Under the pieces are notes generated by a model. The model was not told where the DNA came from and made no database searches. It saw only the letters and a program-made list of their open reading frames with translations. Below, piece by piece: positions 29,991-61,730 of a stretch of 64,000 bases of DNA (positions are counted from its first letter, which is position 1; the number at the start of each line of letters is the position of its first letter). Source of the DNA: a phage; NCBI GenBank assembly GCA_021469345.1, contig GCA_021469345.1_3049.1; one strand, given 5' to 3'. Both the position numbers and the translations under genes were made by a program.

Positions 29991-30042
29991 TTTCACAAAG
30001 TTGTTTACACGTTGATGAGGTAGTGATACTATTATCTCATCA
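29991..30042 (+). promoter_or_regulatory. Early promoter with upstream TTTCACAAAG element and stem-loop (PeSL-like), serving ipI
   Basis: GTTTAC -35 at 30003-30008, -10 inside GTGATACTATTA, flanking inverted repeat GATGAG/CTCATC. Confidence 0.6.
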
Positions 30043-30062
30043 AAATTAATTAGGAAAATAAA

Positions 30063-30350
30063 ATGAAAACTTTCAAAGAATTTACTTCTACAACTACCCC
30101 GGTTTCTACTATTACTGAAGCTACTCTTACTTCTGAAGTTATTAAAGCAAATAAAGGACGAGAAGGTAAACCAATGATTAGTTTGGTTGATGGCGAAGAA
30201 ATCAAAGGTACTGTTTACCTAGGTGATGGGTGGTCTGCTAAAAAGGATGGTGCTACAATCATTATCTCTCCTGCTGAAGAAACTGCGTTGTTTAAAGCTA
30301 AACACATTTCTGCGGCACATCTCAAGATTATTGCTAAAAATCTTTTGTAA
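30063..30350 (+). CDS. ipI: Internal protein I (capsid-packaged, injected)
   Basis: 95 aa; N-terminal capsid-targeting leader MKTFKEFTSTT...ITE/A; T4 IPI length and position. Confidence 0.88.
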   Translation: MKTFKEFTSTTTPVSTITEATLTSEVIKANKGREGKPMISLVDGEEIKGTVYLGDGWSAKKDGATIIISPAEETALFKAKHISAAHLKIIAKNLL

Positions 30351-30355
30351 TAAAT

Positions 30356-30410
30356 ATTTCACAAAGTTGTTTACATAGGGTTTTAGTTGTGATACTATTA
30401 CCCTATCAAC
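30356..30410 (+). promoter_or_regulatory. Early promoter cassette (PeSL-like)
   Basis: TTTCACAAAGTTGTTTACA, -10 in GTGATACTATTACCCTATCAA, inverted repeat ATAGGG/CCCTAT; 21 nt identical to the promoter at 48931. Confidence 0.6.
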
Positions 30411-30426
30411 TACCGAGGAGAATAAA

Positions 30427-30612
30427 ATGAAACGTTGTGAATTAATTCGAAATGTTGCTATTGCAATTTCTGCTTCCGCTTTTAGTTTTTCAATGTTTGT
30501 TGGATTTATATGCGGATTATTGACTACAGCAGAAAATGTTTTTTCACTTGTAGTAGCATTTTTAATTGGTTTAATCGCTATTGTTATGGATAAAATTTCT
30601 AAAGGTGAATAA
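30427..30612 (+). CDS. Small hydrophobic membrane protein
   Basis: 61 aa with two hydrophobic segments; follows an early promoter. Confidence 0.5.
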   Translation: MKRCELIRNVAIAISASAFSFSMFVGFICGLLTTAENVFSLVVAFLIGLIAIVMDKISKGE

Positions 30613-31017
30613 ATGAATATTAACGAATATTATGTTTATGCTGGGGATTATGCAAATCCTTCTCATTTTGAAGGTAATTTAATACCTGATAGAGTTTTTA
30701 ATACTCCTTTTGAAGCGTGGAGTTGGGTTGAAAGTAAAAATGGATTTTCTTATCGTTATGTTGAAGTAACTGATTGGAAAGGAACTAAATATCCTAAAGA
30801 GCATTATTATGTAGACCCATCTAAAGTAAATTTTCTTTTGTTCGCAGGCGATAATTACTATCCTTGCGGTGGATATGATGATTTGATTGCGTATGCTGAA
30901 ACAGAAGATGAATTACGCCAAATTATTGAAGACAATAAATCAAAACGATTTGGCGATAGTTTTGACTGGTGGCAAATCGTAAATGCCCATACACATACTA
31001 TTGTTGATAAAGGTTAA
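30613..31017 (+). CDS. Hypothetical protein with an internally duplicated AGD-Y-Y-P motif
   Basis: 134 aa; YVYAGDYANPSHFEG and LFAGDNYYPCGGYDD look like an internal repeat. Confidence 0.55.
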   Translation: MNINEYYVYAGDYANPSHFEGNLIPDRVFNTPFEAWSWVESKNGFSYRYVEVTDWKGTKYPKEHYYVDPSKVNFLLFAGDNYYPCGGYDDLIAYAETEDELRQIIEDNKSKRFGDSFDWWQIVNAHTHTIVDKG

Positions 31018-31019
31018 TA

Positions 31020-31307
31020 ATGATTCTTTATGCGAAAGTATCATCCATTGAAAATGGATATAAATATGATCAAGAAGCAGCTAAAGCCTTGATTGATGAT
31101 TATGGCATTTTAACATGTTTTGAAGTTGAAAAGGTTTACATTGATCGTTCATCTTCTCAAGTTAAATTAGTGAAGGAAGACCGTAAATTTAACACAGTTA
31201 ACTTTGATTTCTTTATTGAAACGGAAAAAGGTCCTCTTGAATATGATATTTTCAAGAATCCTTTGGGTCTTGAATGCATCGTAAATATGTATCAGCATAA
31301 ATGGTAA
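31020..31307 (+). CDS. Hypothetical protein
   Basis: 95 aa ORF tightly packed after the previous gene. Confidence 0.5.
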   Translation: MILYAKVSSIENGYKYDQEAAKALIDDYGILTCFEVEKVYIDRSSSQVKLVKEDRKFNTVNFDFFIETEKGPLEYDIFKNPLGLECIVNMYQHKW

Positions 31308-31404
31308 ATATGCTTTAAGAATTATTTGTTATTATTAACTCATACCGCACTGATTAATACCCTCTATCATCAAGGGTTCTTGTTTGAGAGCCTTTGTTAA
31401 TAAT

Positions 31405-31477
31405 TGGGAATTAGCCAAGTTGGTAAGGCATAGCACTTTGACTGCTAGATGCAAAGGTTCGAGTCCTTTATTCCCAG
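31405..31477 (+). tRNA. tRNA-Gln (anticodon UUG)
   Basis: Cloverleaf read by eye: acceptor TGGGAAT/ATTCCCA, T-arm GGTTCGAGTCC, anticodon loop CTTTGAC. Confidence 0.85.
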
Positions 31478-31478
31478 C

Positions 31479-31565
31479 GCGAGAATGGTCAAATTGGTAA
31501 AGGCACAGCACTTAAAATGCTGCGGAATAATTTCCTTGTGGGTTCGAGTCCCACTTCTCGCACCA
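31479..31565 (+). tRNA. tRNA-Leu (anticodon UAA), long variable arm, CCA encoded
   Basis: Acceptor GCGAGAA/TTCTCGC, anticodon loop CTTAAAA, T-arm GGTTCGAGTCC, 3' ACCA. Confidence 0.85.
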
Positions 31566-31570
31566 AATTT

Positions 31571-31644
<74 letters not shown>

Positions 31645-31654
31645 ATTTAATTTA

Positions 31655-31728
31655 CTCCGTGTAGCTCAGTTTGGTAGAGCGTCTGCTTTGGGAGCAGAAT
31701 GTCGTAGGTTCAAATCCTGCCACGGAGA
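31655..31728 (+). tRNA. tRNA-Pro (anticodon UGG)
   Basis: Acceptor CTCCGTG/CACGGAG, anticodon loop TTTGGGA, T-arm GGTTCAAATCC. Confidence 0.85.
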
Positions 31729-31730
31729 CT

Positions 31731-31817
31731 GGAGGCGTGGCAGAGTGGTTTAATGCACCGGTCTTGAAAACCGGCAGTCGCTCCGGCGACTCATAGGTTC
31801 AAATCCTATCGCCTCCG
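31731..31817 (+). tRNA. tRNA-Ser (anticodon UGA), long variable arm
   Basis: Acceptor GGAGGCG/CGCCTCC, anticodon loop CTTGAAA, T-arm GGTTCAAATCC. Confidence 0.85.
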
Positions 31818-31819
31818 TT

Positions 31820-31895
31820 GCTGATTTAGCTCAGTAGGTAGAGCACCTCACTTGTAATGAGGATGTCGGCGGTTCGATCCCGTCAATCAGCACCA
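31820..31895 (+). tRNA. tRNA-Thr (anticodon UGU), CCA encoded
   Basis: Acceptor GCTGATT/AATCAGC, anticodon loop CTTGTAA, T-arm GGTTCGATCC. Confidence 0.85.
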
Positions 31896-31896
31896 A

Positions 31897-31968
31897 GGCC
31901 CTGTAGCTGGAAGGTTCAAGCAAGCGACTCATAATCGCCAGATGGTGGTTCAATTCCACCCAGGGCCA
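31897..31968 (+). tRNA. tRNA-Ile (anticodon CAU, presumably lysidine-modified as in T4)
   Basis: Acceptor GGCCCTG/CAGGGCC, anticodon loop CTCATAA, T-arm GGTTCAATTCC. Confidence 0.8.
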
Positions 31969-32009: not shown

Positions 32010-32675
32010 ATGTTCCATTACACTTATAAAATAACAAATAAAATTAATAATAAAATTTATATTGGTGTGCATTCTACCGAAAATTTAGATGATGGATATA
32101 TGGGTTCTGGTAAATTATTAAAAAGAGCTCAAGATAAGTATGGTATAGAAAATTTTTCTAAAGAAATATTAGAGTATTTTGATGATAAAGAATCTATGCT
32201 TGAAGCCGAGAAAAATATTGTCACAGAAGAGTTTTTAAATAGACCAGATGTGTATAATTTAAAACTTGGCGGTGAAGGTGGATGGGACCATATAAATATT
32301 CCTGGGATGCTAAACCAGAAGAAAGACGCTAGTTTAAAAGGAGCTAAATCGTTTAAGTCACGTTTTAAAAATGATATTTTACTTCAAGAAAAATATCGTA
32401 AACATGGTTCAAATGTATTTAAACGCTTGTGGTCAACTCCTGAATACAGGGAAAAATTTTTAAATAATAGCAGATTTTTAAATAAGCATCATACTCCTGA
32501 AACTATTAATAAAATGAAAGAATCTCACGCCAGAAATAAACATCAACAGGGCGAAAAGAATTCCCAATTTGGTATGATGTGGATTCATTCATTAGATGAA
32601 AAAGTTTCTAAACGTATTAAGAAAACTGACCCAATTCCAGAAGGATGGCTTAAAGGTCGAAAAATGAAATTTTAA
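32010..32675 (+). CDS. segB: GIY-YIG homing endonuclease SegB
   Basis: 221 aa; N-terminal YTYKITN...KIYIGVHST...YMGSG GIY-YIG module; inserted inside the tRNA cluster as in T4. Confidence 0.85.
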   Translation: MFHYTYKITNKINNKIYIGVHSTENLDDGYMGSGKLLKRAQDKYGIENFSKEILEYFDDKESMLEAEKNIVTEEFLNRPDVYNLKLGGEGGWDHINIPGMLNQKKDASLKGAKSFKSRFKNDILLQEKYRKHGSNVFKRLWSTPEYREKFLNNSRFLNKHHTPETINKMKESHARNKHQQGEKNSQFGMMWIHSLDEKVSKRIKKTDPIPEGWLKGRKMKF

Positions 32676-32678
32676 TTA

Positions 32679-32754
32679 CGGGGCATAGCTCAGAAGGAAG
32701 AGCAAGGACCTTCTAAGTCCTGGGTCGTAGGTTCGATCCCTACTGCCTCGACCA
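32679..32754 (+). tRNA. tRNA-Arg (anticodon UCU), CCA encoded
   Basis: Acceptor CGGGGCA/TGCCTCG (one G-U pair), anticodon loop CTTCTAA, T-arm GGTTCGATCCC; begins 4 nt after the segB stop. Confidence 0.85.
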
Positions 32755-32757: not shown

Positions 32758-33070
32758 AAGAAGCCGGGTCGCTACCGGTAAGTCGTCGGACTGATGTTCC
32801 CTGAGTAAGGACTGGTCTTAATAAATCTTTACGATTTGTTAATACCCCCTTACATCACAACAGAAACGGCGCACCGAATTATCGATTCGAGGAAATATCT
32901 TTGCCGTAAGCCGAGTAGCGTTTTTGACGGAACGTTCGGATATGGTCGAGATATGGCCTTTTAAAAATATTGAGTAGCGTCAACTGCTTAATAACCGGGT
33001 TCGAATCCCGGCGTTTCGTACAAACACTTGCCTTAGCAGGTGGAACCCCGACAAGGTTGCCGCAAGGCTT
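32758..33070 (+). ncRNA. T4-type small stable RNA region (species 1 / species 2 RNAs), exact ends not determined
   Basis: No credible ORF; contains a tRNA-like T-arm (CCGGGTTCGAATCCCGG); lies directly after tRNA-Arg as in T4; closed by the hairpin terminator at 33071-33100. Confidence 0.45.
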
Positions 33071-33100
33071 AGCCCCAGCCGAAAGGTTGGGGCTTTTTGG
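33071..33100 (+). terminator. Rho-independent terminator after the stable RNA region (repeat copy 1)
   Basis: AGCCCCAGCCGAAAGGTTGGGGCTTTTTGG: stem AGCCCCA/TGGGGCT plus T5. Confidence 0.65.
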
Positions 33101-33108
33101 TATAAATA
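33101..33108 (+). promoter_or_regulatory. Late promoter for the internal-protein-like gene
   Basis: Exact TATAAATA 29 nt upstream of the ATG at 33137. Confidence 0.6.
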
Positions 33109-33136
33109 GATGAGTTAATTAACACAGGAAATAATA

Positions 33137-33599
33137 ATGAAAACTTATGCTCAATTTTTAATGACCGAAGCATCCGCTTCAGATGTTCGCGCTGTAGCAA
33201 CTGCTGCTATTAAAGCTGGTAAATATTCTTATAAAGATGCTTCTGACGAATCTCGGTACAAGTTCTATGACGATATGAGAGCTGAAGGCTTTGTGGGTAA
33301 CTATGTTACCACCGCCTGGAAAAGCCTGGTTGCTACTGGTGCGGCTTTCGAAAAACCTTCTGGTAAACCTGCTCCTAAGGCTGACCCTAAAGCAGCACAA
33401 GAAAAAAAATATTGCTAAAGGAATTATCTCTAGGTATGAAGCAATTCTTAAAGAACTTTTGATAATTAAGACCGAAGGCCAGAAACTTGCACGTGCTTAT
33501 AGTTTCAAAGATAATCCACATGCTCATGACCTAGAGTATGTTGAAGACCTCCAAAAAATCATCAAAGACCGCATTTGGTCTGCTAAACAAATCAAATAA
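33137..33599 (+). CDS. Internal-protein-like gene with capsid-targeting leader; reading frame split at an A8 tract (33402-33409)
   Basis: Late promoter TATAAATA at 33101, SD, leader MKTYAQFLMTE/A. Frame A stops at 33418; frame B continues from the A-run to 33599 and ends at a terminator. One fewer A would fuse them into about 150 aa. Confidence 0.6.
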
Positions 33600-33606
33600 C
33601 ATTCTT

Positions 33607-33636
33607 AGCCCTAGCCGAAAGGTTGGGGCTTTTTGG
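33607..33636 (+). terminator. Rho-independent terminator after the internal-protein-like gene (repeat copy 2)
   Basis: AGCCCTAGCCGAAAGGTTGGGGCTTTTTGG, near-identical to 33071-33100. Confidence 0.65.
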
Positions 33637-33744
33637 TATCTAGGCCTTTCCAGACCTCTCTAGGCATCATTTAGTTTATACCCTTTATAATATATTATCC
33701 TATCTTTTAATTGCCCCTCCCTGCCCCAGAATTCCCCAAAACTT

Positions 33745-33810
33745 TTTAAAAAATTTTTTCACAAAACTGTTTACATCCCTGTTCTTCTATGGTACTATAC
33801 AACTATCAAC
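33745..33810 (+). promoter_or_regulatory. Early promoter cassette
   Basis: TTTTTCACAAAACTGTTTACA plus GGTACTATACAACTATCAAC; identical blocks recur at 48418-48471 and 51070-51089. Confidence 0.6.
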
Positions 33811-33829
33811 TACTGATACAGAAAACAAC

Positions 33830-34105
33830 TTGGAGAACGAAATGGATAATTACGGCGAACTGTTCAACTTCTTTATGAAATGCGTTTCAGAAGATTTTGG
33901 TCGTACAGTGAATGATATTAAAGTTATCGGTCCTGATCATCCGATGTTTGAAACTTACGCAGTAATGGGTAATGAAGATGGTCAGTGGTATACTGTAAAG
34001 GTTGTGATTAACATGTTCACGGCAGAAGGTTATGTTAAACTGTCTTCTAAAGTTTACCATGATAACGATGAAATCGCAGAAGAATATTTCAATAATATGA
34101 AATAA
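33830..34105 (+). CDS. Hypothetical protein (e.x-like region)
   Basis: 91 aa ORF downstream of an early promoter; start may be an internal Met. Confidence 0.5.
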   Translation: MENEMDNYGELFNFFMKCVSEDFGRTVNDIKVIGPDHPMFETYAVMGNEDGQWYTVKVVINMFTAEGYVKLSSKVYHDNDEIAEEYFNNMK

Positions 34106-34140
34106 AACGTTTACATGGGCTTATGATTGAGATATTATGA
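34095..34140 (+). promoter_or_regulatory. Early promoter
   Basis: GTTTAC at 34109 with GATATTAT -10. Confidence 0.5.
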
Positions 34141-34469
34141 GCCCTATTAATGAGAAGAATGTTATGAGTCTTTATACTGAACTGAATAAAAAATCTGAAG
34201 AATCTGCTGAAACTATTTTTAAAAACGTGCAAAGGCGTATTTTAGAAAAGATGTATAACGCTGCAGCTAAAGGTGAAAAATCTTGCCGGTTTCCGATTAG
34301 GTGTTCTTCAGATTTATGCGCAAATACTATTGAATGGCTGGAAAGTGAAGGTCTTACGGTAGAGAAAAACCCGGCGACTTCTATTGACGGCGAATCATAT
34401 ATTAGTATTTCTTGGGATAAACCTCGTACGAATGAAGGGTACTACAAGTTGTTGAGTTGGAAAAATTAA
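34137..34469 (+). CDS. Hypothetical protein
   Basis: 110 aa ORF following an early promoter at 34095-34140. Confidence 0.5.
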   Translation: MSPINEKNVMSLYTELNKKSEESAETIFKNVQRRILEKMYNAAAKGEKSCRFPIRCSSDLCANTIEWLESEGLTVEKNPATSIDGESYISISWDKPRTNEGYYKLLSWKN

Positions 34470-34543
34470 AAATAATGATGTACAAACACCAAGGACGGTG
34501 TTATTATAGACTTATCAAAACAAATACAGAAACGGAGAAATAA

Positions 34544-34708
34544 ATGACTACTTTAATTATTTGGTTCGACGAAAATGAAGAAACATACTGCGTGAACATT
34601 GGCGAAAGCCCAATGCCAGAATTTGAATCTTCAGATAAAAACTCGGTTGTATCTTGGGCTGAAGGTTATAAAGCAGCAAAAGGTGATGTTGAAATAGTTT
34701 ACATCTAA
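34544..34708 (+). CDS. Small hypothetical protein
   Basis: 54 aa ORF with SD GGAGAAA, below the ORF-track length cutoff. Confidence 0.35.
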   Translation: MTTLIIWFDENEETYCVNIGESPMPEFESSDKNSVVSWAEGYKAAKGDVEIVYI

Positions 34709-34752
34709 GTATGAAGGCGTTACTATAGACTTATCATCACAAGGAAAACATT

Positions 34753-35088
34753 ATGAAACGTAACTTTAGTAAAGCTTTTTGTAATAGAAATGATTATCCT
34801 GAAGAGCTTTTTGAATCTAAGGAATTTAAAGAGTTTAACGAACGTTCTCAAAACATGCCTGTACAGTGGGTATTGGATTATGCTAACCGTATCTTTGAAG
34901 GCGTACGTTTCGTTGGCCCCGATGATGAAGCTCCTTATTTTAAAAAGGCTTGGGAACTCGCCAATCAAGCATATATCAATGCTTTAGAATCTTCTAAAGG
35001 TACTGACGATGATTTTATTTTATTGGCTATCAATGATGCTGTTGTCGAGGCCATCGACGCCTTTATCGACGAGCTAGACGAAGAATAA
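34753..35088 (+). CDS. Hypothetical acidic protein
   Basis: 111 aa, acidic C-terminus; SD AAGGAAAA upstream. Confidence 0.5.
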   Translation: MKRNFSKAFCNRNDYPEELFESKEFKEFNERSQNMPVQWVLDYANRIFEGVRFVGPDDEAPYFKKAWELANQAYINALESSKGTDDDFILLAINDAVVEAIDAFIDELDEE

Positions 35089-35120
35089 GTTTACAATCTA
35101 TTAAAAACGTGATATTATCT
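35080..35120 (+). promoter_or_regulatory. Early promoter
   Basis: GTTTAC at 35089 with GATATTAT -10. Confidence 0.5.
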
Positions 35121-35145
35121 AATTGTATCAACCTAAGGAAATACT

Positions 35146-35739
35146 ATGAACACACTGAAGAAAATTGTTGAGTTTATTCGCACTAAACTTGGTTCTGCTA
35201 TGGCTAAAAATCTATCTGTTGAAGAACAGTATACTGCTGCAGCAGCAAAACTACTTGATAAAATTAAAGATCTAAAAACTGCTTCTATTAAATCTATTAA
35301 TGAAGAAAAGCGTATTCGTGAACTTATTGTCGAAAAGAATAAGCAGGCCGAATCAAAAGAGCGTGAAATTCGCAAGCTTCTTTCCGAAGGTCAAGATGTA
35401 ACAATGCATGCTAAACTCGGTTTACTATATCGTCGAACAGCTGAGCAGTTGACTACTAAAGCTGACGGTTATGCTGAAATGCGAATTGAAATTGCCAAGA
35501 AAGTAGTTGAGTTAGATGATGCTCGTCAAGAACTTGCAGTTAAATTGGAATATATCCGTGAAACTCGCGCCGCGAATGCCCTTGGAATTAGTACTGCCGA
35601 TGATGTAGTTGAAATCGCAGCGCTGACTAAGGTTGATATTGAAGATACCCTTGCTCGAGTTGAAACCTTTAACGGTAATATTTCCGGGGTTGAAACTACC
35701 TCTGCCGATGTTCAGGAATATATTAATTCTCTGAAATAA
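35146..35739 (+). CDS. Coiled-coil protein, possibly PspA/IM30-like
   Basis: 197 aa, helical heptad-like sequence rich in K/E/A; followed by a GC hairpin at 35747-35761; preceded by an early promoter. Confidence 0.5.
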
Positions 35740-36751: not shown

Positions 36752-37095
36752 ATAAAGTCAAATATTCGCTTCCTGAGTCATTTTTAATTTTTGCTGTGGC
36801 GTTGGCTGCAGCTCTTGCGGGTAGTCTTTTTGGATTATTAATTGACTGTCTTATTTTAAACATCGACGGCACAGTAAATATAACAGAAGTTTGGAGTGAA
36901 CTTCACTATACTAAAATTATTTCATTATTTTCATTCTTTGGTACCATGTTATATTTTCATTATGATAATTTTAAAATAAATTGGCAAAGAAAAAAGGATT
37001 ACAAAATACAATTAAAAGAATATAATAGCTACATGTCTTATATTGAAAATGAATCAATGAAAGAGTTTGTGAGTGATTGCAGGAAATTAAAATGA
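36733..37095 (+). CDS. Membrane protein, paralog of the previous gene
   Basis: 120 aa; hydrophobic segments and a similar C-tail (MKEFVSDCRKLK). Confidence 0.5.
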   Translation: MQKPKLNKVKYSLPESFLIFAVALAAALAGSLFGLLIDCLILNIDGTVNITEVWSELHYTKIISLFSFFGTMLYFHYDNFKINWQRKKDYKIQLKEYNSYMSYIENESMKEFVSDCRKLK

Positions 37096-37532: not shown

Positions 37533-38100
<568 letters not shown>

Positions 38101-38158
38101 TACAGTTACTTGAAGAGACAAATTATTAATTAAAATATTTTACATTTAAAGGAAACAT

Positions 38159-38632
38159 ATGAAAACATATCAAGAATTTATTACTGAAGCAGCTATTAAT
38201 TCTCAAATTATTGCTGAATCTTTTACTGATCTTTTGAAATTTAAAAAAGGCCAAAAAATCACTGCTGTATTGGATGATGGTACAGAAGTTGAGATGGATG
38301 TACAAGGATATAATTATGCAGTAGATGGAAAACTGTATAATAAATCTCATGCTAAATTTGATTCATTTGACGACTTTGTTAATACAGTTGAAGATGAAAA
38401 AACTCGTCGATCCATTGCAACTGGTGATGCTAAGGTTCTTATGGCACATGGTCATGAACGCATTCGCGCTAAACAGAATAAAATGGGTGAAGATAATTTT
38501 GCATTAGTTGGTTATCAATCTGGTAAACAAACCTATGGTTATCAGCGTACTGCTACCATGTATAATAAAAATGGTAAAATTGCCTTTGTGAATAGTAAGG
38601 GTTCTATTCAGTACGTTAAATCGTTCAAATAA
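38159..38632 (+). CDS. Internal protein (IPII/IPIII-like) with capsid-targeting leader
   Basis: 157 aa; leader MKTYQEFITE/A with gp21-type L/I-x-E cleavage context; adjacent to e as ipIII/ipII are in T4, but the length differs from both. Confidence 0.7.
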   Translation: MKTYQEFITEAAINSQIIAESFTDLLKFKKGQKITAVLDDGTEVEMDVQGYNYAVDGKLYNKSHAKFDSFDDFVNTVEDEKTRRSIATGDAKVLMAHGHERIRAKQNKMGEDNFALVGYQSGKQTYGYQRTATMYNKNGKIAFVNSKGSIQYVKSFK

Positions 38633-40500: not shown

Positions 40501-40778
40501 TGGCTCAATTAAGCGCAGGGTTTGGTTATGAGTATTATACTGCCCCTCGTCGTGTATCTGTTGCTCCTAAGAAAATTCAAAGTCTTGATGACTTCCAGGA
40601 AGTAGTTCGTAACGCTTTCCAGGACTATGCACGTTATCTTAAAGAAGATTCACAGGACTGTCTCGAAGAAGATGAAATTGCTTACTATGAGCAGCGTCTT
40701 GAACAGCTCAAAAATCTACATGAGGTTCGTGCAGAAGTTTCAAAGTCTATGAATAAATTGATTAGATTTAAAGAATAA
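40500..40778 (+). CDS. Hypothetical protein
   Basis: About 92 aa from [13 protein letters not shown]; TAATG overlap with the upstream gene. Confidence 0.45.
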
Positions 40779-40812
40779 CTGTTTACTTTTCCTCTTGACT
40801 GTGGTATAATTT
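40770..40812 (+). promoter_or_regulatory. Early promoter for regB
   Basis: GTTTAC at 40781, perfect TATAAT at 40805-40810. Confidence 0.6.
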
Positions 40813-40837
40813 TTCTATCAGTTAAGAGGAGAATAAC

Positions 40838-41299
40838 ATGACTATCAATACAGAAGTTTTTATCCGTCGAAATAAGCTTCGTCGTCACTTTGAGTCGGAG
40901 TTTCGTCAAATTAACAATGAGATTCGTGAGGCATCAAAAGCAGCAGGGGTCTCATCGTTTCATCTAAAATATTCTCAACATCTTCTTGATCGCGCAATTC
41001 AACGGGAGATTGATGAGACATACGTTTTTGAATTATTCCATAAAATAAAAGACCATGTTTTAGAAGTTAATGAATTCCTGAGTATGCCTCCGCGTCCTGA
41101 CATTGACGAGGATTTTATTGATGGGGTTGAATATCGTCCTGGACGTTTAGAAATCACAGATGGAAATCTTTGGCTTGGATTTACAGTTTGTAAGCCTAAT
41201 GAGAAGTTCAAAAACCCGTCACTTCAATGCAGGATGGCAATTATCAATAGTCGTCGTTTACCAGGAAAGGCTTCTAAAGCAGTAATTAAAACTCAATGA
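40838..41299 (+). CDS. regB: Endoribonuclease RegB
   Basis: 153 aa as in T4 RegB; basic N-terminus MTINTEVFIRRNKLRRHFESEFRQ; early promoter upstream. Confidence 0.85.
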   Translation: MTINTEVFIRRNKLRRHFESEFRQINNEIREASKAAGVSSFHLKYSQHLLDRAIQREIDETYVFELFHKIKDHVLEVNEFLSMPPRPDIDEDFIDGVEYRPGRLEITDGNLWLGFTVCKPNEKFKNPSLQCRMAIINSRRLPGKASKAVIKTQ

Positions 41300-45012: not shown

Positions 45013-45038
45013 AACCATCGGATAAAGAGGAGAACATC

Positions 45039-48381: not shown

Positions 48382-48383
48382 TA

Positions 48384-48408: not shown

Positions 48409-48414
48409 TTTCAA

Positions 48415-48475: not shown

Positions 48476-48497
48476 AAACACTTAAACGGAAAACAAA

Positions 48498-48647: not shown

Positions 48648-48907
48648 CAGTTTACGTAGATGTTTTAATGAATCATGGATGGAAACTTCGCGGTCATCCA
48701 ACTAAAAATTGTCATATGTTCACTGATGGAGATATTGAAGAGCTTCACGAAATGGCAGAAGCAATAGGAATGAAACGTTCTTGGTTTCAAGATAAACGCA
48801 TTAAACATTATGACTTACACGCTCGGCGACGCCAAAAAGCTGTAGAACTTGGAGCTGTAGAAGTATCTCGTCGCGAAGCAGTAAAAATTTGGCAAACATT
48901 AAAATAA
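48644..48907 (+). CDS. Hypothetical protein
   Basis: 87 aa ORF, His-rich. Confidence 0.45.
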   Translation: MTVYVDVLMNHGWKLRGHPTKNCHMFTDGDIEELHEMAEAIGMKRSWFQDKRIKHYDLHARRRQKAVELGAVEVSRREAVKIWQTLK

Positions 48908-48952
48908 ATTGTTTACAGCAGGGTAGTAGTGTGATACTATTACCCTATCAAA
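48900..48952 (+). promoter_or_regulatory. Early promoter cassette (PeSL-like)
   Basis: GTTTAC at 48911, -10 in GTGATACTATTACCCTATCAA, inverted repeat GGGTA/TACCC. Confidence 0.6.
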
Positions 48953-48976
48953 ACAAATGTGAAATTGGAGAATAAA

Positions 48977-50743: not shown

Positions 50744-51046
50744 ATGTTATACTCAAAGGCTCGTGAAATTTACGAAACTAAAATTAAAGAAGCAGTATTT
50801 CAGTTCGCAACAACAATGCGATGGACAAATGACTGTGAGTATTCAAAAAATCATAAGAAGCCCATGGTGACAAGAAAGGCTCATATGTTAGTGTTAATAG
50901 ACCGCGAGCAGATTAAAGCCCGAGAAGCCCTCCAGAATCATAAAAAGGCTGCCTTTGAATGGTTTATGGATAACACTGCTCCTGAGACTAAGAAAGCAGT
51001 AAGCGCATGGTTCAGTGGAAAAAATTGCGAAAGAAGTTTCTTTTAG
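50744..51046 (+). CDS. Hypothetical protein
   Basis: About 100 aa. Confidence 0.45.
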   Translation: MLYSKAREIYETKIKEAVFQFATTMRWTNDCEYSKNHKKPMVTRKAHMLVLIDREQIKAREALQNHKKAAFEWFMDNTAPETKKAVSAWFSGKNCERSFF

Positions 51047-51090
51047 TGGTTTACAAGACTGTTCCTCTGTGGTACTATACAACTATCAAC
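51040..51090 (+). promoter_or_regulatory. Early promoter cassette
   Basis: GTTTAC at 51049, -10 in TGGTACTATACAACTATCAAC. Confidence 0.6.
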
Positions 51091-51106
51091 TACGGAGGAA
51101 CACAAA

Positions 51107-51379
51107 ATGAACGCTAAAGATATTTTCAACCTGGTAAATTACAACGATGGTAAATTTAAATCTGAAGCACAAAGCAAGTTCTTTAATGACATCTCAATCG
51201 GAGGTGAAATCACTGTTGATGGAGGACAAATTTACAAATCCCGTTGGAATTGGATCGTTATTATCGATGAGATTGGTATTGTAGAAATTTATAAAAATAC
51301 GAAAATCGTGCATTACACTGGTCTCGTGATACTAACGAACAGTACAAAAAGGATAAAGCATCTAAATTATCTCGTGTAA
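51107..51379 (+). CDS. Hypothetical protein
   Basis: 90 aa ORF downstream of an early promoter. Confidence 0.45.
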   Translation: MNAKDIFNLVNYNDGKFKSEAQSKFFNDISIGGEITVDGGQIYKSRWNWIVIIDEIGIVEIYKNTKIVHYTGLVILTNSTKRIKHLNYLV

Positions 51380-51414
51380 CTCAAGAAGATATTGAGTTCA
51401 TCAAGAAAGATATT

Positions 51415-51630
51415 TTGATGTATGATAACTTAATTGCTGAAGAGCAAGCTGTTATTGATAAATTTGATGAGATTAAAGCTTCTCGTGAAATTCCTGATTT
51501 TATGAAAGAATCAGTAAATGAACGATACACTCTCATTTCAGAGCGTATTGAAACTTACAAAAAGCAAAGAGCTGAACGCCAAAATACTCTTCGGAAGTTT
51601 GAAGAACGGTTAAAGACGGTACTCGCATAA
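51415..51630 (+). CDS. Hypothetical helical protein
   Basis: 71 aa ORF. Confidence 0.4.
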   Translation: MMYDNLIAEEQAVIDKFDEIKASREIPDFMKESVNERYTLISERIETYKKQRAERQNTLRKFEERLKTVLA

Positions 51631-51685
51631 CCGCTTTATACCAAGGATGGTATAATGGTTCTAAGCCCTTTTAACTGAGATTATT

Positions 51686-52995: not shown

Positions 52996-54024
52996 ATGAA
53001 AACTCGTTCTCAAATTGAAGATATGGTTCGTAATGCCAGTTATACTCGTGATGTTATGACATTTTTGTGTGAAAATAATTTAGACCCTGATAAAGTTAAT
53101 CGTGTTATTCATCACTTTAAGTATACGAATAGCAGTGAATGGGTGCGTAATTTTAGTAAAGCAGGGTATATTACACAAATGACTGCTCGTGAACAGCTCA
53201 CCGATTTCTGTAAAACTATTGATTATAAAAATCCTTTGATTGTTCAAGGCGTTGGTCAGAGTAAGGTTGATTTATCAACAGGATTTTTTAATCCAAATCA
53301 TTATCGTCTTGAATGGAGATTTATTGCTCTATTCCGTAAACAATTAAAGCAAATTTTGTCTACTGCTAGTCGATTAAAAGGTTCTGATATTAACTTAAAG
53401 AATCTGAAATTTGATGGTTATACTCTTCAGATGGAAGTAAGACCGTTAAAAGAAAATAATAGAACTGCACGAATTAGCTTTAAGCCTAATACAAAAAATT
53501 CTCTTTCAATTTGTGAATGCCTTAAATCACAGTTGACAGAAGCATTTAAGTATATGGATGTTGTTGCTGCTGTTCAATCTAAGATTTTACCTCGTTTTGA
53601 GCGAAATTGGGAACATACAACAACGTATGAACTTGATATGATCGTTTCATTTAAATACGATTTTTTGAGAAAGGACGAAGTCACGCAAGAGAAAAAGCAG
53701 GAAGTACAAGATAACTTAAATTTAAATTTATCTAATTACTTATCAAACGATCCTAAATTTTGGATGTATAGTTCAGGTAATAAAGATGCATGGAAATTCA
53801 ATAAAGTGAATTTTCTTCCTATTGAAAATCCGAGTCTTAAACCTGTTGAAAAATGGCACGCGGATGCGATTGAGAAGTCCCTTAAGGCAGTAGATGATGA
53901 ACTCGTTAAAGCGACCAATGAAGTGCTAAAAGCTGAAAAGGTGTTAGAACAAGCTCAGTCAAGGGTTCAAAATCTGACAAAGCAACGTTCTAAACTGAAC
54001 AATGCACTAAATGCACTAAACTAG
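52996..54024 (+). CDS. Paralog family member 2
   Basis: 342 aa; MKTR N-terminus; FRKQLKQILSTASRLKG central motif; coiled-coil tail. Confidence 0.6.
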   Translation: MKTRSQIEDMVRNASYTRDVMTFLCENNLDPDKVNRVIHHFKYTNSSEWVRNFSKAGYITQMTAREQLTDFCKTIDYKNPLIVQGVGQSKVDLSTGFFNPNHYRLEWRFIALFRKQLKQILSTASRLKGSDINLKNLKFDGYTLQMEVRPLKENNRTARISFKPNTKNSLSICECLKSQLTEAFKYMDVVAAVQSKILPRFERNWEHTTTYELDMIVSFKYDFLRKDEVTQEKKQEVQDNLNLNLSNYLSNDPKFWMYSSGNKDAWKFNKVNFLPIENPSLKPVEKWHADAIEKSLKAVDDELVKATNEVLKAEKVLEQAQSRVQNLTKQRSKLNNALNALN

Positions 54025-54055
54025 TTTACTTTGCCACAAGGATGTGGTATAATGT
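54015..54055 (+). promoter_or_regulatory. Early promoter for paralog 3
   Basis: GTTTAC at 54024, perfect TATAAT at 54048-54053; CCACAAGGATGTGG hairpin in the spacer. Confidence 0.6.
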
Positions 54056-54081
54056 TCTTACTTTCTACTGAGGAGATTAAT

Positions 54082-55083
54082 ATGACTCGTAACGAATATA
54101 TCAAATCATTCAATAGAGTTATTGATGATAAAGCTATACCGATGTTTGGCCAAAATAGCGTTCTTTCTATTATCAATCAATGGCTCAATAGTGTTGATGC
54201 AGGTATTGTTTCTTCTACTAAATTTATTCATGAAATTCGTAAAATTTCTAGCCGTGTAGATAAAGATCTTATCAAGAAAACCTTTAAAGAGTCTCGTCTT
54301 CTTTCATATTTGGTTAATCGGGATATTCTTGGTAATTTTGGGAAAGAAATTAAACGAACCAAAGATGTAGTAGGATACAATTGGTTCGGTGATGTTAATA
54401 CTTATCATCTTAATACTAAAGAAGACCCTGAGAATATTTTTACTCGTCGTTGGGTTAGTGAATTTAGGAGTTTTACGAAGCAAATTCTAAAATCAGCTTC
54501 TAAATTATGTTATGGCGATTATCGTCAAATTCATCCTTTAGCTGATGATATGATTATAGCAGAAGAATATGAACTTGATAAAAACAAAGTAGCTATTTTT
54601 ATTAATTACAGATTTTTTACACCAGAAACTAACCAAAAGAACATTAATAAATTTTTCTCAATTGCTAGCACTATAACTCGTCAATTAGAGACCGCATTAC
54701 TTTGTATGGAAACAGTAGAAAATATTCATACTTATCCTTTTAAGAATATATGCGGTTGGGAAGGATATAAACTCGTAATTAGCCTTCGTGAAGTGAAATG
54801 TGCTTATTCACCTACTGATAAAGAAATTTACCAACAAAAATGCGAAGAAATTGTGAATACTCCTAAAGAAGAAACTACCCTTGAGGAACTAATGGAATGT
54901 CTTGATGATTCGCCTGAACCGGTAGAAATTCGTCCAGAAGTTATTGCATTAGAAAAAGCTTATAAAGAAGCTCTAGAAATTTCTAATAAAGCACAGAAAG
55001 AATATGAGAAGGCTAAAAGGATTTGGGAAGAATCTGTCAATCGCTTGGATCGTCTTGAACAAGCTTTACAATTAATTAAGTAA
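54082..55083 (+). CDS. Paralog family member 3
   Basis: About 333 aa from the ATG after SD GAGGAG (the listed ORF start lies inside the promoter); FRSFTKQILKSASKL motif; coiled-coil tail. Confidence 0.6.
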   Translation: MTRNEYIKSFNRVIDDKAIPMFGQNSVLSIINQWLNSVDAGIVSSTKFIHEIRKISSRVDKDLIKKTFKESRLLSYLVNRDILGNFGKEIKRTKDVVGYNWFGDVNTYHLNTKEDPENIFTRRWVSEFRSFTKQILKSASKLCYGDYRQIHPLADDMIIAEEYELDKNKVAIFINYRFFTPETNQKNINKFFSIASTITRQLETALLCMETVENIHTYPFKNICGWEGYKLVISLREVKCAYSPTDKEIYQQKCEEIVNTPKEETTLEELMECLDDSPEPVEIRPEVIALEKAYKEALEISNKAQKEYEKAKRIWEESVNRLDRLEQALQLIK

Positions 55084-57876: not shown

Positions 57877-57905
57877 TACCCTTATCTATTTAAGGTAAGG
57901 GTTTA
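57877..57905 (+). terminator. Hairpin between pin and gene 49
   Basis: ACCCTTA...TAAGGGT stem-loop followed by a T-rich tract. Confidence 0.45.
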
Positions 57906-58381: not shown

Positions 58382-60195
58382 CAATTGAAAAAGAAATTGA
58401 AGGATTGATTCATAAAACTAATAAAGACCTTTTAAACGAGAATGCTAATAAAGATTCTCGTGTTTTTCCAACTCAACGGGACCTTATGGCTGGTATTGTG
58501 TCTAAACACATTGCCAAAAATATGGTCCCGTCTTTTATTATGAAAGCACATGAAAGCGGAATTATCCATTTCCACGATATTGATTATTCCCCTGCTCTTC
58601 CATTTACTAATTGTTGTTTAGTAGATTTAAAAGGAATGCTTGAGAACGGGTTTAAGCTCGGTAATGCACAGATTGAAACTCCTAAATCAATTGGCGTTGC
58701 TACTGCAATTATGACACAAATTACTGCACAGGTTGCTTCCCATCAATACGGCGGAACGACTTTTGCTAATGTAGATAAAGTACTTTCTCCTTATGTTAAA
58801 CGCACCTATGCAAAACATATTGAGGATGCAGAAAAATGGCAAATCGCTGATGCGTTGAATTATGCTCAATCTAAAACAGAAAAAGACGTATACGATGCAT
58901 TCCAAGCTTATGAATATGAAGTAAATACTCTCTTTAGTTCAAACGGACAAACGCCTTTTGTAACAATTACATTTGGTACGGGAACTGACTGGACTGAACG
59001 AATGATTCAGAAAGCAATTCTGAAAAATCGTATTAAAGGCCTTGGTCGCGATGGGATAACTCCTATTTTCCCTAAGCTTGTTATGTTCGTTGAAGAAGGT
59101 GTTAATCTTTATAAAGACGATCCAAACTATGATATTAAGCAGCTTGCTCTAGAGTGTGCAAGCAAAAGGATGTATCCTGATATTATTTCAGCTAAGAACA
59201 ATAAAGCTATCACTGGTTCATCTATTCCTGTTTCTCCGATGGGATGCCGTAGTTTCTTGAGCGTATGGAAAGATTCGACTGGTAATGAAATTCTTGATGG
59301 ACGTAATAATCTTGGTGTTGTAACATTGAATCTTCCTCGCATCGCGTTAGATTCTTATATTGGAACACAGTTCAATGAACAGAAATTTATCGAATTGTTT
59401 AATGAACGAATGGATTTATGTTTTGAAGCTTTGATGTGTAGAATTAGTTCCTTAAAAGGAGTTAAAGCGACTGTTGCTCCTATTCTTTACCAAGAAGGTG
59501 CATTCGGGGTTCGTCTTAAACCTGATGACGACATAATTGAGTTATTTAAAAACGGTAGAAGTTCAGTGTCCCTAGGATACATTGGTATTCACGAATTGAA
59601 TATTCTTGTCGGTCGTGATATTGGACGAGAAATTTTAACTAAAATGAATGCTCATCTTAAACAGTGGACTGAAAGAACTGGGTTTGCTTTTAGTTTGTAT
59701 TCTACTCCTGCTGAAAACCTGTGCTATCGCTTCTGTAAACTTGATACCGAAAAATATGGAAGTGTAAAAGATGTTACCGATAAAGGCTGGTACACTAACA
59801 GTTTCCATGTTTCAGTAGAAGAAAATATCACTCCATTTGAAAAGATTTCTCGCGAAGCACCGTATCATTTCATTGCAACAGGCGGTCACATTTCTTATGT
59901 TGAACTTCCTGATATGAAAAATAACCTAAAAGGTCTTGAGGCTGTATGGGATTATGCTGCACAACATTTAGATTATTTTGGTGTTAACATGCCGGTAGAT
60001 AAGTGTTTTACGTGCGGAAGTACTCATGAAATGACTCCTACTGAAAATGGATTTGTTTGTTCTATCTGTGGAGAAACTGATCCTAAAAAGATGAACACAA
60101 TAAGAAGAACATGTGGTTATTTGGGAAATCCGAACGAACGCGGATTTAATCTCGGCAAAAATAAAGAAATCATGCATAGGGTTAAACACCAATGA
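58378..60195 (+). CDS. nrdD: Anaerobic ribonucleoside-triphosphate reductase NrdD, uninterrupted
   Basis: 605 aa; C-terminal glycyl-radical region and CxxC zinc ribbon (CFTCG...CSICG); one continuous ORF. Confidence 0.9.
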   Translation: MTIEKEIEGLIHKTNKDLLNENANKDSRVFPTQRDLMAGIVSKHIAKNMVPSFIMKAHESGIIHFHDIDYSPALPFTNCCLVDLKGMLENGFKLGNAQIETPKSIGVATAIMTQITAQVASHQYGGTTFANVDKVLSPYVKRTYAKHIEDAEKWQIADALNYAQSKTEKDVYDAFQAYEYEVNTLFSSNGQTPFVTITFGTGTDWTERMIQKAILKNRIKGLGRDGITPIFPKLVMFVEEGVNLYKDDPNYDIKQLALECASKRMYPDIISAKNNKAITGSSIPVSPMGCRSFLSVWKDSTGNEILDGRNNLGVVTLNLPRIALDSYIGTQFNEQKFIELFNERMDLCFEALMCRISSLKGVKATVAPILYQEGAFGVRLKPDDDIIELFKNGRSSVSLGYIGIHELNILVGRDIGREILTKMNAHLKQWTERTGFAFSLYSTPAENLCYRFCKLDTEKYGSVKDVTDKGWYTNSFHVSVEENITPFEKISREAPYHFIATGGHISYVELPDMKNNLKGLEAVWDYAAQHLDYFGVNMPVDKCFTCGSTHEMTPTENGFVCSICGETDPKKMNTIRRTCGYLGNPNERGFNLGKNKEIMHRVKHQ

Positions 60196-60662
60196 ATTAT
60201 GATAGATTTTATCCTTGCGATTTTGTGAATGGCCCTGGATGCAGGGTCGTTCTTTTCGTTACAGGTTGTTTGCATAAATGCGAAGGGTGTTATAATAAAT
60301 CAACATGGAATGCTAGAAATGGCGTTCCATTCACTGGTGAAACACTGGAACAATTAATTGAATGTTTGAATAATGATTATATAGAAGGATTAACTATAAC
60401 TGGAGGAGACCCTCTCTATCCTGATAACCGAGATGTTGTTCATTGCATTGTTCAAACAGTAAAAAATCTTTATCCCAATAAAAGCATTTGGTTGTGGACA
60501 GGATATAAATTTGAAGATATTAAACAACTAGAAATGCTTAAATATGTTGATGTTATTATTGATGGGAAGTATGAGAAAAATCTTCCGACTAAAAAGCTGT
60601 GGCGAGGATCAGATAATCAGCGACTTTGGTCAAATACCGATGGGGTGTGGACACATGATTAA
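60192..60662 (+). CDS. nrdG: Anaerobic NTP reductase activating protein NrdG (radical SAM)
   Basis: 156 aa; radical-SAM Cys cluster CLHKCEGC; coupled to nrdD. Confidence 0.88.
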   Translation: MNYDRFYPCDFVNGPGCRVVLFVTGCLHKCEGCYNKSTWNARNGVPFTGETLEQLIECLNNDYIEGLTITGGDPLYPDNRDVVHCIVQTVKNLYPNKSIWLWTGYKFEDIKQLEMLKYVDVIIDGKYEKNLPTKKLWRGSDNQRLWSNTDGVWTHD

Positions 60663-60777
60663 ATTGAATTACATTATGGATACTATAAATGATATGATTT
60701 TTCATTTTGGTCCAGAATTTTATTCCCAATATAGTTTAGTGCTTATCAATGCTTGGTTAATCAATTAAGGGTAAAAT

Positions 60778-60993
60778 ATGTATAAATTTCGTAAAGGTTT
60801 AGCTGATTTTCTTACAACTGTAACATTCTTTCTGTTTATGGCAGTTGGAGCTATTTTCCTTATTCCTTTTATTGCTATATTTTTCGTGATTAGCTTAATT
60901 TCTCCAGAAAAAGGCTTATCTTCTAGTGAGTTTAATGAGCGTCTGGATAAAATTACTAACAAGCTGAATGCTGTTCTTGATAAAAAGGCTTAA
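60778..60993 (+). CDS. Small membrane protein
   Basis: 71 aa with a hydrophobic helix. Confidence 0.45.
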   Translation: MYKFRKGLADFLTTVTFFLFMAVGAIFLIPFIAIFFVISLISPEKGLSSSEFNERLDKITNKLNAVLDKKA

Positions 60994-60995
60994 TT

Positions 60996-61307
60996 ATGAT
61001 TAGTTTTGAGCGGTATGTAGTAGAGAGTTGGAATGGTTTTGATATGTTCGGTAATGACTATTATTTCTATGAATGTAGTCTGAACCCAAGCTTCTGGGCT
61101 GGACGTGAACAAGACCTCGAAGAAATCAACGCTCGTGCCGATTTGTTAGGTGAACTGCCTACTACTTATTTCACCTTTGATGAATCCGGCTTCGTTATCC
61201 AGGTTTATTTTCCTGAAGAAAACTCTGGTGAGGATTCTGTTAACCCGCCATACTGGGCTTATCAAGGAATTATTTCTCGTGGAACAAAACTCGAACTTAA
61301 AGAATAA
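60996..61307 (+). CDS. Hypothetical protein
   Basis: 103 aa ORF. Confidence 0.45.
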   Translation: MISFERYVVESWNGFDMFGNDYYFYECSLNPSFWAGREQDLEEINARADLLGELPTTYFTFDESGFVIQVYFPEENSGEDSVNPPYWAYQGIISRGTKLELKE

Positions 61308-61602
61308 GATTGAAATCTATGGCATCCCCGAAGAAGTAGGTCGTTGTCCTGGATGTCAATCAGTTACAAAACTTCTAAAGGAGCTCAATGCTCCTTTTAC
61401 TTTCTATAAAGTTCTTACAAATAACGGTAAGATTGAGTATGATCGTCCACTGATTGTATCTCTTGCTAAACGCGCTGGATTCACATCTCTTAACATTCGT
61501 TATCCAGTCATTTTCATTAATGATTCCAGACAAAAGAACATTAAACACTTCAAAGAAACCCTCATTTCACTTGGATATGATAGAGATATCATAGAAGACT
61601 AA
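61279..61602 (+). CDS. nrdH: Glutaredoxin-like protein NrdH; start codon uncertain (GTG at 61279 proposed)
   Basis: KIEIYGIPEEVGRCPGCQ redox motif; no in-frame ATG near the N-terminus, but GTG at 61279 follows SD AAGGA; followed by a terminator. Confidence 0.6.
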   Translation: MEQNSNLKNKIEIYGIPEEVGRCPGCQSVTKLLKELNAPFTFYKVLTNNGKIEYDRPLIVSLAKRAGFTSLNIRYPVIFINDSRQKNIKHFKETLISLGYDRDIIED

Positions 61603-61604
61603 GA

Positions 61605-61628
61605 TGGGCCCTCTGGGCCTTTCTTTCT
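61605..61628 (+). terminator. Rho-independent terminator after nrdH
   Basis: GGCCC-TCT-GGGCC followed by TTTCTTTC. Confidence 0.55.
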
Positions 61629-61684
61629 TACATTCTGTATATTACCATTCTAAGCTATCGTTCCCTTCTTATCATTCCCTAAAA

Positions 61685-61730
61685 TATTTTTCACAAAGTT
61701 GTTTACAACAAGTTCAAACCGTGGTATTAT
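61685..61730 (+). promoter_or_regulatory. Early promoter with upstream TTTCACAAAG element
   Basis: TTTTCACAAAGTTGTTTACA with -10 in TGGTATTATT. Confidence 0.55.

Follow-up and report, generated by a model that had tools for sequence, protein, structure and literature searches.

Early-promoter cassettes of a T4-like phage: recurrent promoters, partial exchange points and candidate read-through hairpins

A 64,000-nt stretch of phage DNA (GenBank assembly GCA_021469345.1, contig GCA_021469345.1_3049.1; hereafter the window, meaning the whole stretch) carries repeated early-promoter cassettes between positions 29991 and 61730, and at several of them the spacer between the -35 and -10 elements is complementary to the leader of the same cassette. 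This spacer-leader complementarity exceeds chance and replicates in T4, Mosigvirus and Dhakavirus. What are the cassettes, and what could the complementary arms be doing? The whole is probably best explained by early promoters that have a partial role in gene exchange and carry an additional layer of hairpins, which would form in read-through RNA. A broader proposal is more tentative, and we hold it at slightly less than even chance: throughout the Tevenvirinae, the early-promoter spacer may encode the 5' arm of hairpins restricted to read-through RNA, giving each early gene cassette a post-transcriptional insulator. Such an insulator would be a closed ribosome-binding site with a hidden RegB site, or a nuclease barrier, and would be an alternative to a terminator upstream of the promoter.

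The window comes from the early region of a Tequatrovirus (a T4-like phage). Megablast gives 93-96% identity to many T4-like phages (about 96% at the top among the matches listed), T4 76.0 to 39.7 kb is co-linear with window 27954-64000, and the + strand of the window corresponds to the early (minus) strand of T4. The earlier note on this DNA had counted at least fourteen early promoters of the form GTTTAC...-10. Motif and position weight matrix (PWM) searches bear this out with 15 strong sites and one degenerate site from 30003 to 61701, all on the + strand (Table 1). Their layout is GTTTAC, 18 nt, TGnTAnnAT, a cCTATCAA leader, a Shine-Dalgarno (SD) sequence and ATG. GTTTAC-N18-TAnnnT is exact at 15 sites, with ATGTAC at the remaining one (34478), which was detected by a fixed-spacing PWM; GTTTAC-N15-19-TANNAT has 19 matches against 1.27 expected. 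A two-block PWM (an UP/-35 block and an extended -10 block, spacer of 17-19 nt) run over the whole 64 kb found 17 sites, every one of them on the + strand. The same strand bias is seen with it in nine relatives (6-19 sites versus 0), and two further T4 regions have 7 and 9 promoter sites versus 0 on the opposite strand. The PWM consensus reads aA.t.GTTTACa...tGtGaTActAT...cctatc, with upstream blocks of the TTTCACAAA type, and an SD and ATG follow within 25-85 nt of all 15 strong sites. Weak promoter-like sites inside genes lie at 37959, 57311, 60268 and 62140.

These features are those of T4 early promoters, whose consensus places GTTTAC at -36..-31 with extra conserved positions beyond the sigma-70 elements (Nolan et al. 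2006, PMC1524935) and includes a GT-rich extended -10 and an A-rich UP region (PMC1524935; Hinton 2010, PMC2988021). The window cassettes share the -35, the extended -10, TAnnAT and the A-rich upstream sequence and, like the T4 promoters, stand upstream of early genes and small open reading frames (ORFs). They are orthologous to the T4 ipI, trna.4, e.8, e.7, e.6, ipIII, regB, mobD.5, mobD.2, nrdC.10, nrdC.8, nrdC.4 and 55.6 promoters, among which regB has been described as having a 'typical early promoter' (PMC3014915). The two sets are essentially the same, except that the window has two or three extra copies accompanying inserted ORFs (34109/34478, 48911). Judged from sequence, the repeats are thus 15-16 predicted T4-type early promoters for host sigma-70 RNA polymerase, and their match to experimentally mapped T4 promoters rests on orthology and secondary sources. 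Each abuts the 3' end of the preceding gene and would drive one small early gene on the + strand.

Several promoters had also been noted to carry an inverted repeat bracketing the -10. The repeats are real and longer than had been quoted (fold z to -5.8). RNA folds from -35 to ATG have 11-17 paired positions and z = -4.2 to -5.8 at the promoters 30003, 34109, 40781, 45772 and 51049, and are weaker at 30369, 48911 and 54024 (z = -2.1 to -2.8). Is this more than the shared consensus pairing with itself? Each spacer was duplexed with its own leader and with the leader of every other promoter, and significance was obtained by permutation. In the window the own duplexes average -10.75 kcal against -6.95 kcal for the cross duplexes (p = 3e-5). 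The same comparison gives p = 1e-5 for the homologous T4 region, p = 1e-5 and 1.5e-4 for two Mosigviruses, p = 1.6e-4 for one Dhakavirus, a weak p = 0.05 for one Gaprivervirus (n=5), and p = 3.3e-4 for 14 T4 promoters from unrelated regions, where strong stems occur at alc, motB.2, dmd, the ndd.4 region and mrh.2. The GenBank phage collection supplied the relatives, since a pattern scan for homologs of the regB promoter in IMG/VR gave only 2 loci.

The stems also persist while their sequence changes. At regB the pairs are TTTTCCTCTTGACTG/CAGTTAAGAGGAGAA in Tequatrovirus, TTCTCCTCTAGTTG/CAACTAGAGGAGAA in Mosigvirus, ATCTCCTGTAG/CTACAGGAGAT in Dhakavirus and TTTCTCCTCTTTATG/CATAAAGAGGAGAAA in Gelderlandvirus. 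For the regB orthologs of eight lineages (seven named genera and one unclassified Klebsiella phage), the matched pairing of spacers and leaders is the best of 40,320 permutations. This test replaced an alignment of seven regB promoters with MAFFT and RNAalifold, which did not bring the arms into register because stem length and position vary. The nrdC.8 promoter has three different stems in three genera, and its orthologs in Mosigvirus, Dhakavirus and Gaprivervirus differ in their stems; at trna.4 the arm GATAGGGT (ATAGGGT) sits at different spacer positions in T2 and in the window, with the same 3' arm. The orf34164 stem differs on both arms from that of T4 P(e.7) (ATAGGCT/AGCCTAT), and the mobD.2 stem, with 14 perfect pairs in the T4 ortholog, has two G·U pairs in the window. 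Counted over stems defined by scoring blind to mismatch type, 15 internal mismatches are G·T, none is A·C and 8 are of other kinds (p = 3e-5), from about 12 independent events. An excess of 15:0 points to a single sense strand, and the arms are most plausibly read, from their sequences, as an RNA hairpin of the sense strand and not as a two-strand cruciform.

Could the complementarity nevertheless be functionless, arising from self-complementarity of the consensus or from quasipalindrome 'correction' by template switching during replication? The consensus is partly self-complementary (..TAGTGATACTA..), so that several stems run on into the -10; hairpins are missing from half of the promoters; and templated quasipalindrome mutation was first described in T4. 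However, the own-versus-cross comparison allows for consensus and composition, and five independent sets give significant results with it. Moreover, a given promoter keeps a stem from lineage to lineage although the sequence, and even the place of the 5' arm, changes, and template switching gives perfect Watson-Crick repeats, not an excess of G·T over A·C. We give this explanation little credence.

How would a hairpin with one arm in a promoter spacer work? With the transcription start taken to be 7 nt after the -10 element, the 5' arm lies within the spacer at -30..-14, upstream of the start. In about half of the promoters the spacer would encode the 5' arm of a hairpin whose 3' arm is downstream of the -10. 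A transcript from the cassette's own promoter, starting about 7 nt past the -10, would be without the 5' arm and, where the 3' arm directly follows the -10, would also miss all or most of that arm. The hairpin would thus be confined to read-through RNA arriving from upstream. The motif, the strand bias, the breakpoints, the complementarity, the co-variation and the G·U bias are shown by the sequences; folding of the RNA in vivo, its effects on translation and decay, and the transcription starts themselves are inferred.

The stems fall into two classes. In class B the 3' arm covers the SD; this is found at regB and nrdC.8 in the window, at denV, alc and motB.2 in T4, at several promoters of Mosigvirus and Dhakavirus, and at Gelderlandvirus regB. 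Opening the region from SD to AUG is predicted to cost more in read-through RNA than in the own transcript, by +14.1 kcal at regB and +13.1 kcal at nrdC.8. Read-through RNA would therefore keep its ribosome-binding site closed and conceal GGAG, the target of RegB, and promoter-proximal RNA would be open, making translation dependent on the gene's own promoter. There is precedent in T4: long transcripts of e, soc, 49 and I-TevI are closed and proximal ones are open, and RegB cuts GGAG in the SD sequences of early genes, a cleavage blocked by RNA structure (PMC3014915). Because of the opening costs, the architecture of these T4 genes and the block of RegB by structure, we infer that class B stems would silence their gene in read-through RNA and shield it from RegB. 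The sequestered SDs of regB (AGAGGAGAA) and nrdC.8 (CGGAGGAAC) contain the RegB core motif, and these hairpins may be linked to RegB. As in e, soc, 49 and I-TevI, the 5' arm would be upstream of the proximal start, and the 3' arm lies over the SD or AUG. In those genes, however, the internal promoter is late (gp55, TATAAATA) and the arrangement delays expression, whereas in the window the promoter is an early sigma-70 one with the arm in its spacer, and many window stems stop short of the SD. The window has its own copy of the gene 49 hairpin (57878-57902: ACCCTTATC...AAGGTAAGGGT, then TTATTATG), an internal positive example of sequestration of a ribosome-binding site. As a separate observation, nrdC.8 (51107-51634) has a 4-nt deletion relative to T4 near codon 66, and the resulting frameshift leaves an ORF of 90 aa (175 aa in T4); either nrdC.8 is a pseudogene or the sequence contains an error. 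The promoter and the SD-sequestering hairpin of nrdC.8 are unaffected.

Class A stems enclose the -10 only, and occur at ipI (30003), trna.4 (30369), orf34164 (34109), mobD.2 (45772) and nrdC.10 (48911). The idea that every hairpin sequesters an SD was considered and rejected, as class A stems give about zero predicted change in SD access. They may serve as an intercistronic nuclease barrier or as a stabiliser of 3' ends, a role we propose with low confidence. The mobD.2 leader (45772-45832) behaves differently again: one leader segment would be paired with the spacer in read-through RNA but, by prediction, with the SD in promoter-proximal RNA, with SD opening costs of 8.7 kcal in the promoter-proximal and 1.4 kcal in the read-through form. 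It is possibly a two-state leader of which the read-through RNA would be the translatable form.

How do these repeats compare with promoter-early stem-loop (PeSL) elements, to which the earlier note had likened them? PeSLs are units of early promoter, SD and ATG located among the small ORFs of hyperplastic regions (Arbiol et al. 2010, PMC2839356; Comeau et al. 2014, PMC4122927), the latter comparison taking in the T4/PST pair. The window cassettes resemble them in having, at some cassettes, insertion, deletion and swap crossovers between the -10 and the ATG, and in having an upstream terminator at three or four cassettes: directly upstream of the -35 at mobD.5 (44948), the two-ORF module (48383) and 55.6 (61606), with a fourth (33607) about 135 nt upstream of the 33769 promoter; 12 cassettes have none. 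The likeness does not extend to the bracketing repeats. In published PeSLs the stem-loop is a terminator that immediately precedes the promoter (PMC2839356, PMC4122927), whereas the repeats of the window lie within and downstream of it, with the 5' arm in the spacer, the 3' arm downstream of the -10 and no U-tract, and are promoter-specific, co-varying and tolerant of G·U. A mutual exclusion of hairpin and terminator was tried and dropped: redundant data gave p = 0.003-0.005, which became p = 0.068 after collapsing orthologs. Upstream of regB in Aeromonas phage L9-6 (200-330) there is a strong terminator followed by a GTTTAC promoter without a spacer-leader stem, and in the RB49-like Krischvirus FL04 regB has no upstream promoter; anecdotally, both arrangements agree with terminator and hairpin being alternatives.

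The cassettes share more than a consensus. Four identical blocks quoted in the earlier note are all present, at or within 2 nt of the positions it gave, with 0 expected in shuffles: TTTTTCACAAAACTGTTTACA at 33755 and 48418; TGGTACTATACAACTATCAA at 33790, 48453 and 51070; GTGATACTATTACCCTATCAA at 30389 and 48931; and TTTCACAAAGTTGTTTACA at 29991, 30357 and 61689. From a PWM trained on 40 other promoters, the probability that two such 20-21-mers are identical is about 5e-7 per pair, and 1 and 4 identical pairs were observed among 105, about 1e4-fold above prediction. Promoter consensus alone is therefore insufficient, and the blocks are probably polymerase-contact segments that also reflect common ancestry or exchange between cassettes. 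Such short homologies would act as crossover points.

Do crossovers indeed fall at the cassettes? The view that they mark the borders of modules exchanged between phages holds in part. Breakpoints were defined as the ends of indels or replacements of at least 90 nt in chained BLAST alignments of the 28-64 kb region with six full-length Tequatrovirus genomes (T4, IME537, NIC06P2, RB14, T2, ESh34) and two partial ones. Cassettes, taken from 45 nt before the -35 to 10 nt after the ATG, make up 5.3% of the sequence and hold 12 of 52 unique breakpoints (binomial p = 1.3e-5). Against a gene-start null, 7/14 promoter-bearing starts have a breakpoint versus 15/75 promoterless ones (Fisher p = 0.024; odds ratio of about four). 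But only 8/16 cassettes are involved, six of them in 30-38 kb (nearly all cassette breakpoints are in the internal protein (IP)/e.x region, plus nrdC.10), so module borders are explained only partly. The majority, 40 of the 52, do not coincide with cassettes and fall at endonuclease genes (segB and a seg-like one), at the sites of the nrdD intron and of mobC, at a 36-bp terminator repeat and at gene junctions without a promoter. Crossovers at cassettes, by the mechanism published for PeSLs and the IP locus, would account for some of the genes gained, lost or swapped between the relatives, but not for the majority.

The individual junctions are located in the spacer, in the leader or where the -35 ends, and the swapped ORFs encode internal virion proteins or products of unknown function. 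T4 and RB14 are without 48505-48964, and their single nrdC.10 promoter joins the upstream half of window promoter 48432 to the 48911 leader, a hybrid from which it follows that the window gained two ORFs and a promoter. Missing from RB14 and T2 are orf34164 and e.7; here the junctions lie shortly before a -35 hexamer or at its end, and in a leader. In RB14 (~8080-8130), the promoter replacing P(e.7)/P(e.6) has GTTTACA and upstream sequence as in the window, together with a third, unrelated spacer and -10 (..CCGGAGTATAATACTCTC..), nearly palindromic around the -10. The IP gene is replaced in four relatives, with junctions about 30 nt into the ORF and at 30386, within the spacer of the promoter that follows; ESh34 has its right junction at 30352, upstream of the -35 and within the trna.4 cassette. 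At the Ip4-like gene, the leader has breakpoints at 38122-38132 and the ORF has one at 38190, 31 nt from its start. Both internal-protein genes thus have breakpoints about 21-34 nt inside the ORF (30084-30097, 38190), so the first ~10 codons move with the promoter cassette; these codons presumably encode the conserved N-terminal sequence that targets IPs to the capsid. Repeat families D5 and D6 span the 5' segments of the IP genes. A terminator-to-terminator counterpart of cassette shuffling is the 500-bp insertion at 33068-33639, missing in T4 and T2 with a 35-36 nt overlap at the junction, and replaced in RB14 (657 nt versus 510 nt in the window); its ORF belongs to phrog_2280, of unknown function.

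One could argue instead that the identical blocks merely converged on polymerase contacts, that the cassettes have no exchange role and that breakpoints simply fall at gene boundaries. The many breakpoints outside cassettes, including those at promoterless starts, fit this, as do the unrelated spacers (25% identity) between identical blocks. Yet identity of the 20-21-mers far beyond the PWM prediction, the fourfold odds at promoter-bearing starts, the hybrid nrdC.10 promoter of T4 and the mini-circles from such cassette crossovers demonstrated in RB49/phi1 (PMC2839356) all speak against it, and we regard it as unlikely.

A different proposal places the action of the inverted repeats in DNA: as cruciforms or hairpins they would draw recombination or structure-specific nucleases to the cassettes and mobilise them in a PeSL-like way. 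Several of the enriched breakpoints are in spacer or leader, within the repeats; Arbiol et al. speculated that PeSL stem-loops are recombination targets, and Mosig's T4 deletions involved GGGC/GCCC repeats (PMC2839356). A cruciform, however, pairs both strands, and the 15 G·T to 0 A·C would put A·C mismatches on the complementary strand. In addition, promoter-specific, co-varying arms lower the similarity from cassette to cassette, unlike shared homology patches, the strongest hairpins (regB, nrdC.8, mobD.2) are at cassettes without a breakpoint in the six relatives, and the stem-loops of published PeSLs are the upstream terminators. An action in DNA thus seems very unlikely.

Hairpins in read-through RNA, combined with a partial exchange role, remain the reading we favour, and several points weigh against it. 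RNA folding from -35 to ATG found no significant hairpin at 8/16 cassettes, and the start sites are assumed from spacing. The G·T excess is possibly inflated by strand-biased C-to-T mutation, some of the counted stems are orthologs (hence the ~12 independent events), and a DNA hairpin of the non-template strand predicts the same bias. The trade-off between hairpin and terminator is only a trend once orthologs are collapsed. Class A stems leave SD access about unchanged and mobD.2 goes in the opposite direction, so no single function fits all stems. On the side of exchange, there are the breakpoints outside cassettes.

Table 1. Promoter cassettes, hairpins and terminators in the window (z, RNA fold z-score; rank, position of the own spacer-leader duplex among all leaders)
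Feature	Coordinates	Strand	Details
ipI-like internal virion protein gene cassette	29981-30065	+	-35 30003-30008, -10 30027-30032, ATG 30063; PHROG internal virion protein
ipI-like cassette hairpin	30012-30043	+	encloses -10; z = -4.2; own duplex -13.8 kcal, rank 1/16
trna.4 cassette	30347-30429	+	-35 30369, -10 30393, ATG 30427
trna.4 hairpin ATAGGGT/ACCCTAT	30375-30406	+	z = -2.1
Direct repeat (36 bp) of intrinsic terminator	33068-33103 and 33604-33639	+	flanks 500-bp insertion with ORF 33137-33418
e.8 cassette	33747-33844	+	-35 33769, ATG 33842; no significant hairpin; terminator 33607-33630 ~135 nt upstream
orf34164 cassette	34087-34166	+	-35 34109, ATG 34164; breakpoints 34105, 34167
orf34164 hairpin GGGCUUAUGAU/AUUAUGAGCCC	34117-34144	+	z = -4.45
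Degenerate cassette	34456-34546	+	ATGTAC -35 at 34478, TATTAT -10, ATG 34544; breakpoint 34470; small hairpin within spacer (ACACC/GGTGT)
e.7 cassette	34675-34755	+	-35 34697, ATG 34753; no hairpin; breakpoints 34703 (-35 end), 34742 (leader)
e.6 cassette	35067-35148	+	-35 35089, ATG 35146; no hairpin; leader breakpoint 35127 in five relatives
Ip4-like internal virion protein gene cassette	38046-38161	+	-35 38068, ATG 38159
regB cassette	40759-40840	+	-35 40781, -10 40805, ATG 40838
regB hairpin UUUUCCUCUUGACUG/CAGUUAAGAGGAGAA	40787-40833	+	3' arm = SD; z = -5.8; own duplex -22.5 kcal, rank 1
mobD.5 terminator and early promoter	44948-45041	+	terminator 44948-44965, -35 44981, ATG 45039; true PeSL-type layout, no spacer hairpin
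mobD.2 cassette	45750-45832	+	-35 45772, ATG 45830
mobD.2 15-bp hairpin	45779-45814	+	encloses -10; z = -4.25
Two-ORF inserted module: terminator and early promoter	48383-48500	+	terminator 48383-48402, -35 48432, ATG 48498
nrdC.10 cassette	48889-48979	+	-35 48911, ATG 48977; leader breakpoint 48965
nrdC.10 hairpin	48920-48946	+	encloses -10; z = -2.8
nrdC.8 cassette	51027-51109	+	-35 51049, ATG 51107
nrdC.8 hairpin UGUUCCUCUGU/ACGGAGGAACA	51060-51102	+	3' arm = SD; z = -5.1; own duplex -20.8 kcal, rank 1
nrdC.4 cassette	54002-54084	+	-35 54024, ATG 54082; hairpin within spacer 54032-54049, z = -2.3
55.6 terminator and early promoter	61606-61763	+	terminator 61606-61620, -35 61701, ATG 61761; PeSL-type layout, no spacer hairpin

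The cassettes are set in the gene order 57B/ipI, tRNA cluster, e.x, e, regB, tk, mobD.x, nrdC.x, 49, nrdD and 55.x. A search of 28-64 kb with Rfam recovered eight tRNAs (31405-31968 and 32679-32751) and no other RNA family; the tRNA cluster is interrupted by segB (32010-32675). A seg-like homing endonuclease lies between nrdC.10 and nrdC.9 (49942-50661), nrdD has no I-TevII intron (58913-58916), and mobC is absent. Inside the 5' end of nrdG (60227-60296), shortly downstream of the position of mobC in T4 (junction 60192-60212), a strong stem-loop and T-run precede a promoter-like GTTTGC-17-TATAAT, which is kept in a Gaprivervirus (~31189 there). The gene e.2 (~455 nt in T4, IME537, RB14, ESh34, G10400 and teqdroes) is absent at 37066-37095, where the e.3-nudE junction has an overlap of 30 nt; no promoter takes part in this junction.

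What is new here, and what would it mean? The promoters, their repetition and their role as linkers were already known, from PeSLs and from the IP locus, where the motifs described by Repoila et al. in 1994 are said to be recombination linkers; this part is one more example of published knowledge. For spacer-leader complementarity as a general, co-varying feature of early promoters, no prior account was found in the accessible literature, older subscription papers being unchecked. Spacers used as coding space for a hairpin arm would explain why they diverge completely between otherwise identical promoters. If this is true, the supposedly 'free' spacer of a promoter can face selection at the level of RNA, and the translational gating of e, soc, 49 and I-TevI extends from a few late genes to many early ones, among them regB, whose product is a toxic RNase, and the gene of the host-shutoff factor Alc. 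In phage engineering, read-through expression could be altered when an early promoter cassette is transferred and its matching leader is not, or when only the leader is. It would also offer a testable handle on how T4-type phages express dozens of back-to-back early cassettes independently, and on how RegB discriminates among GGAG sites.

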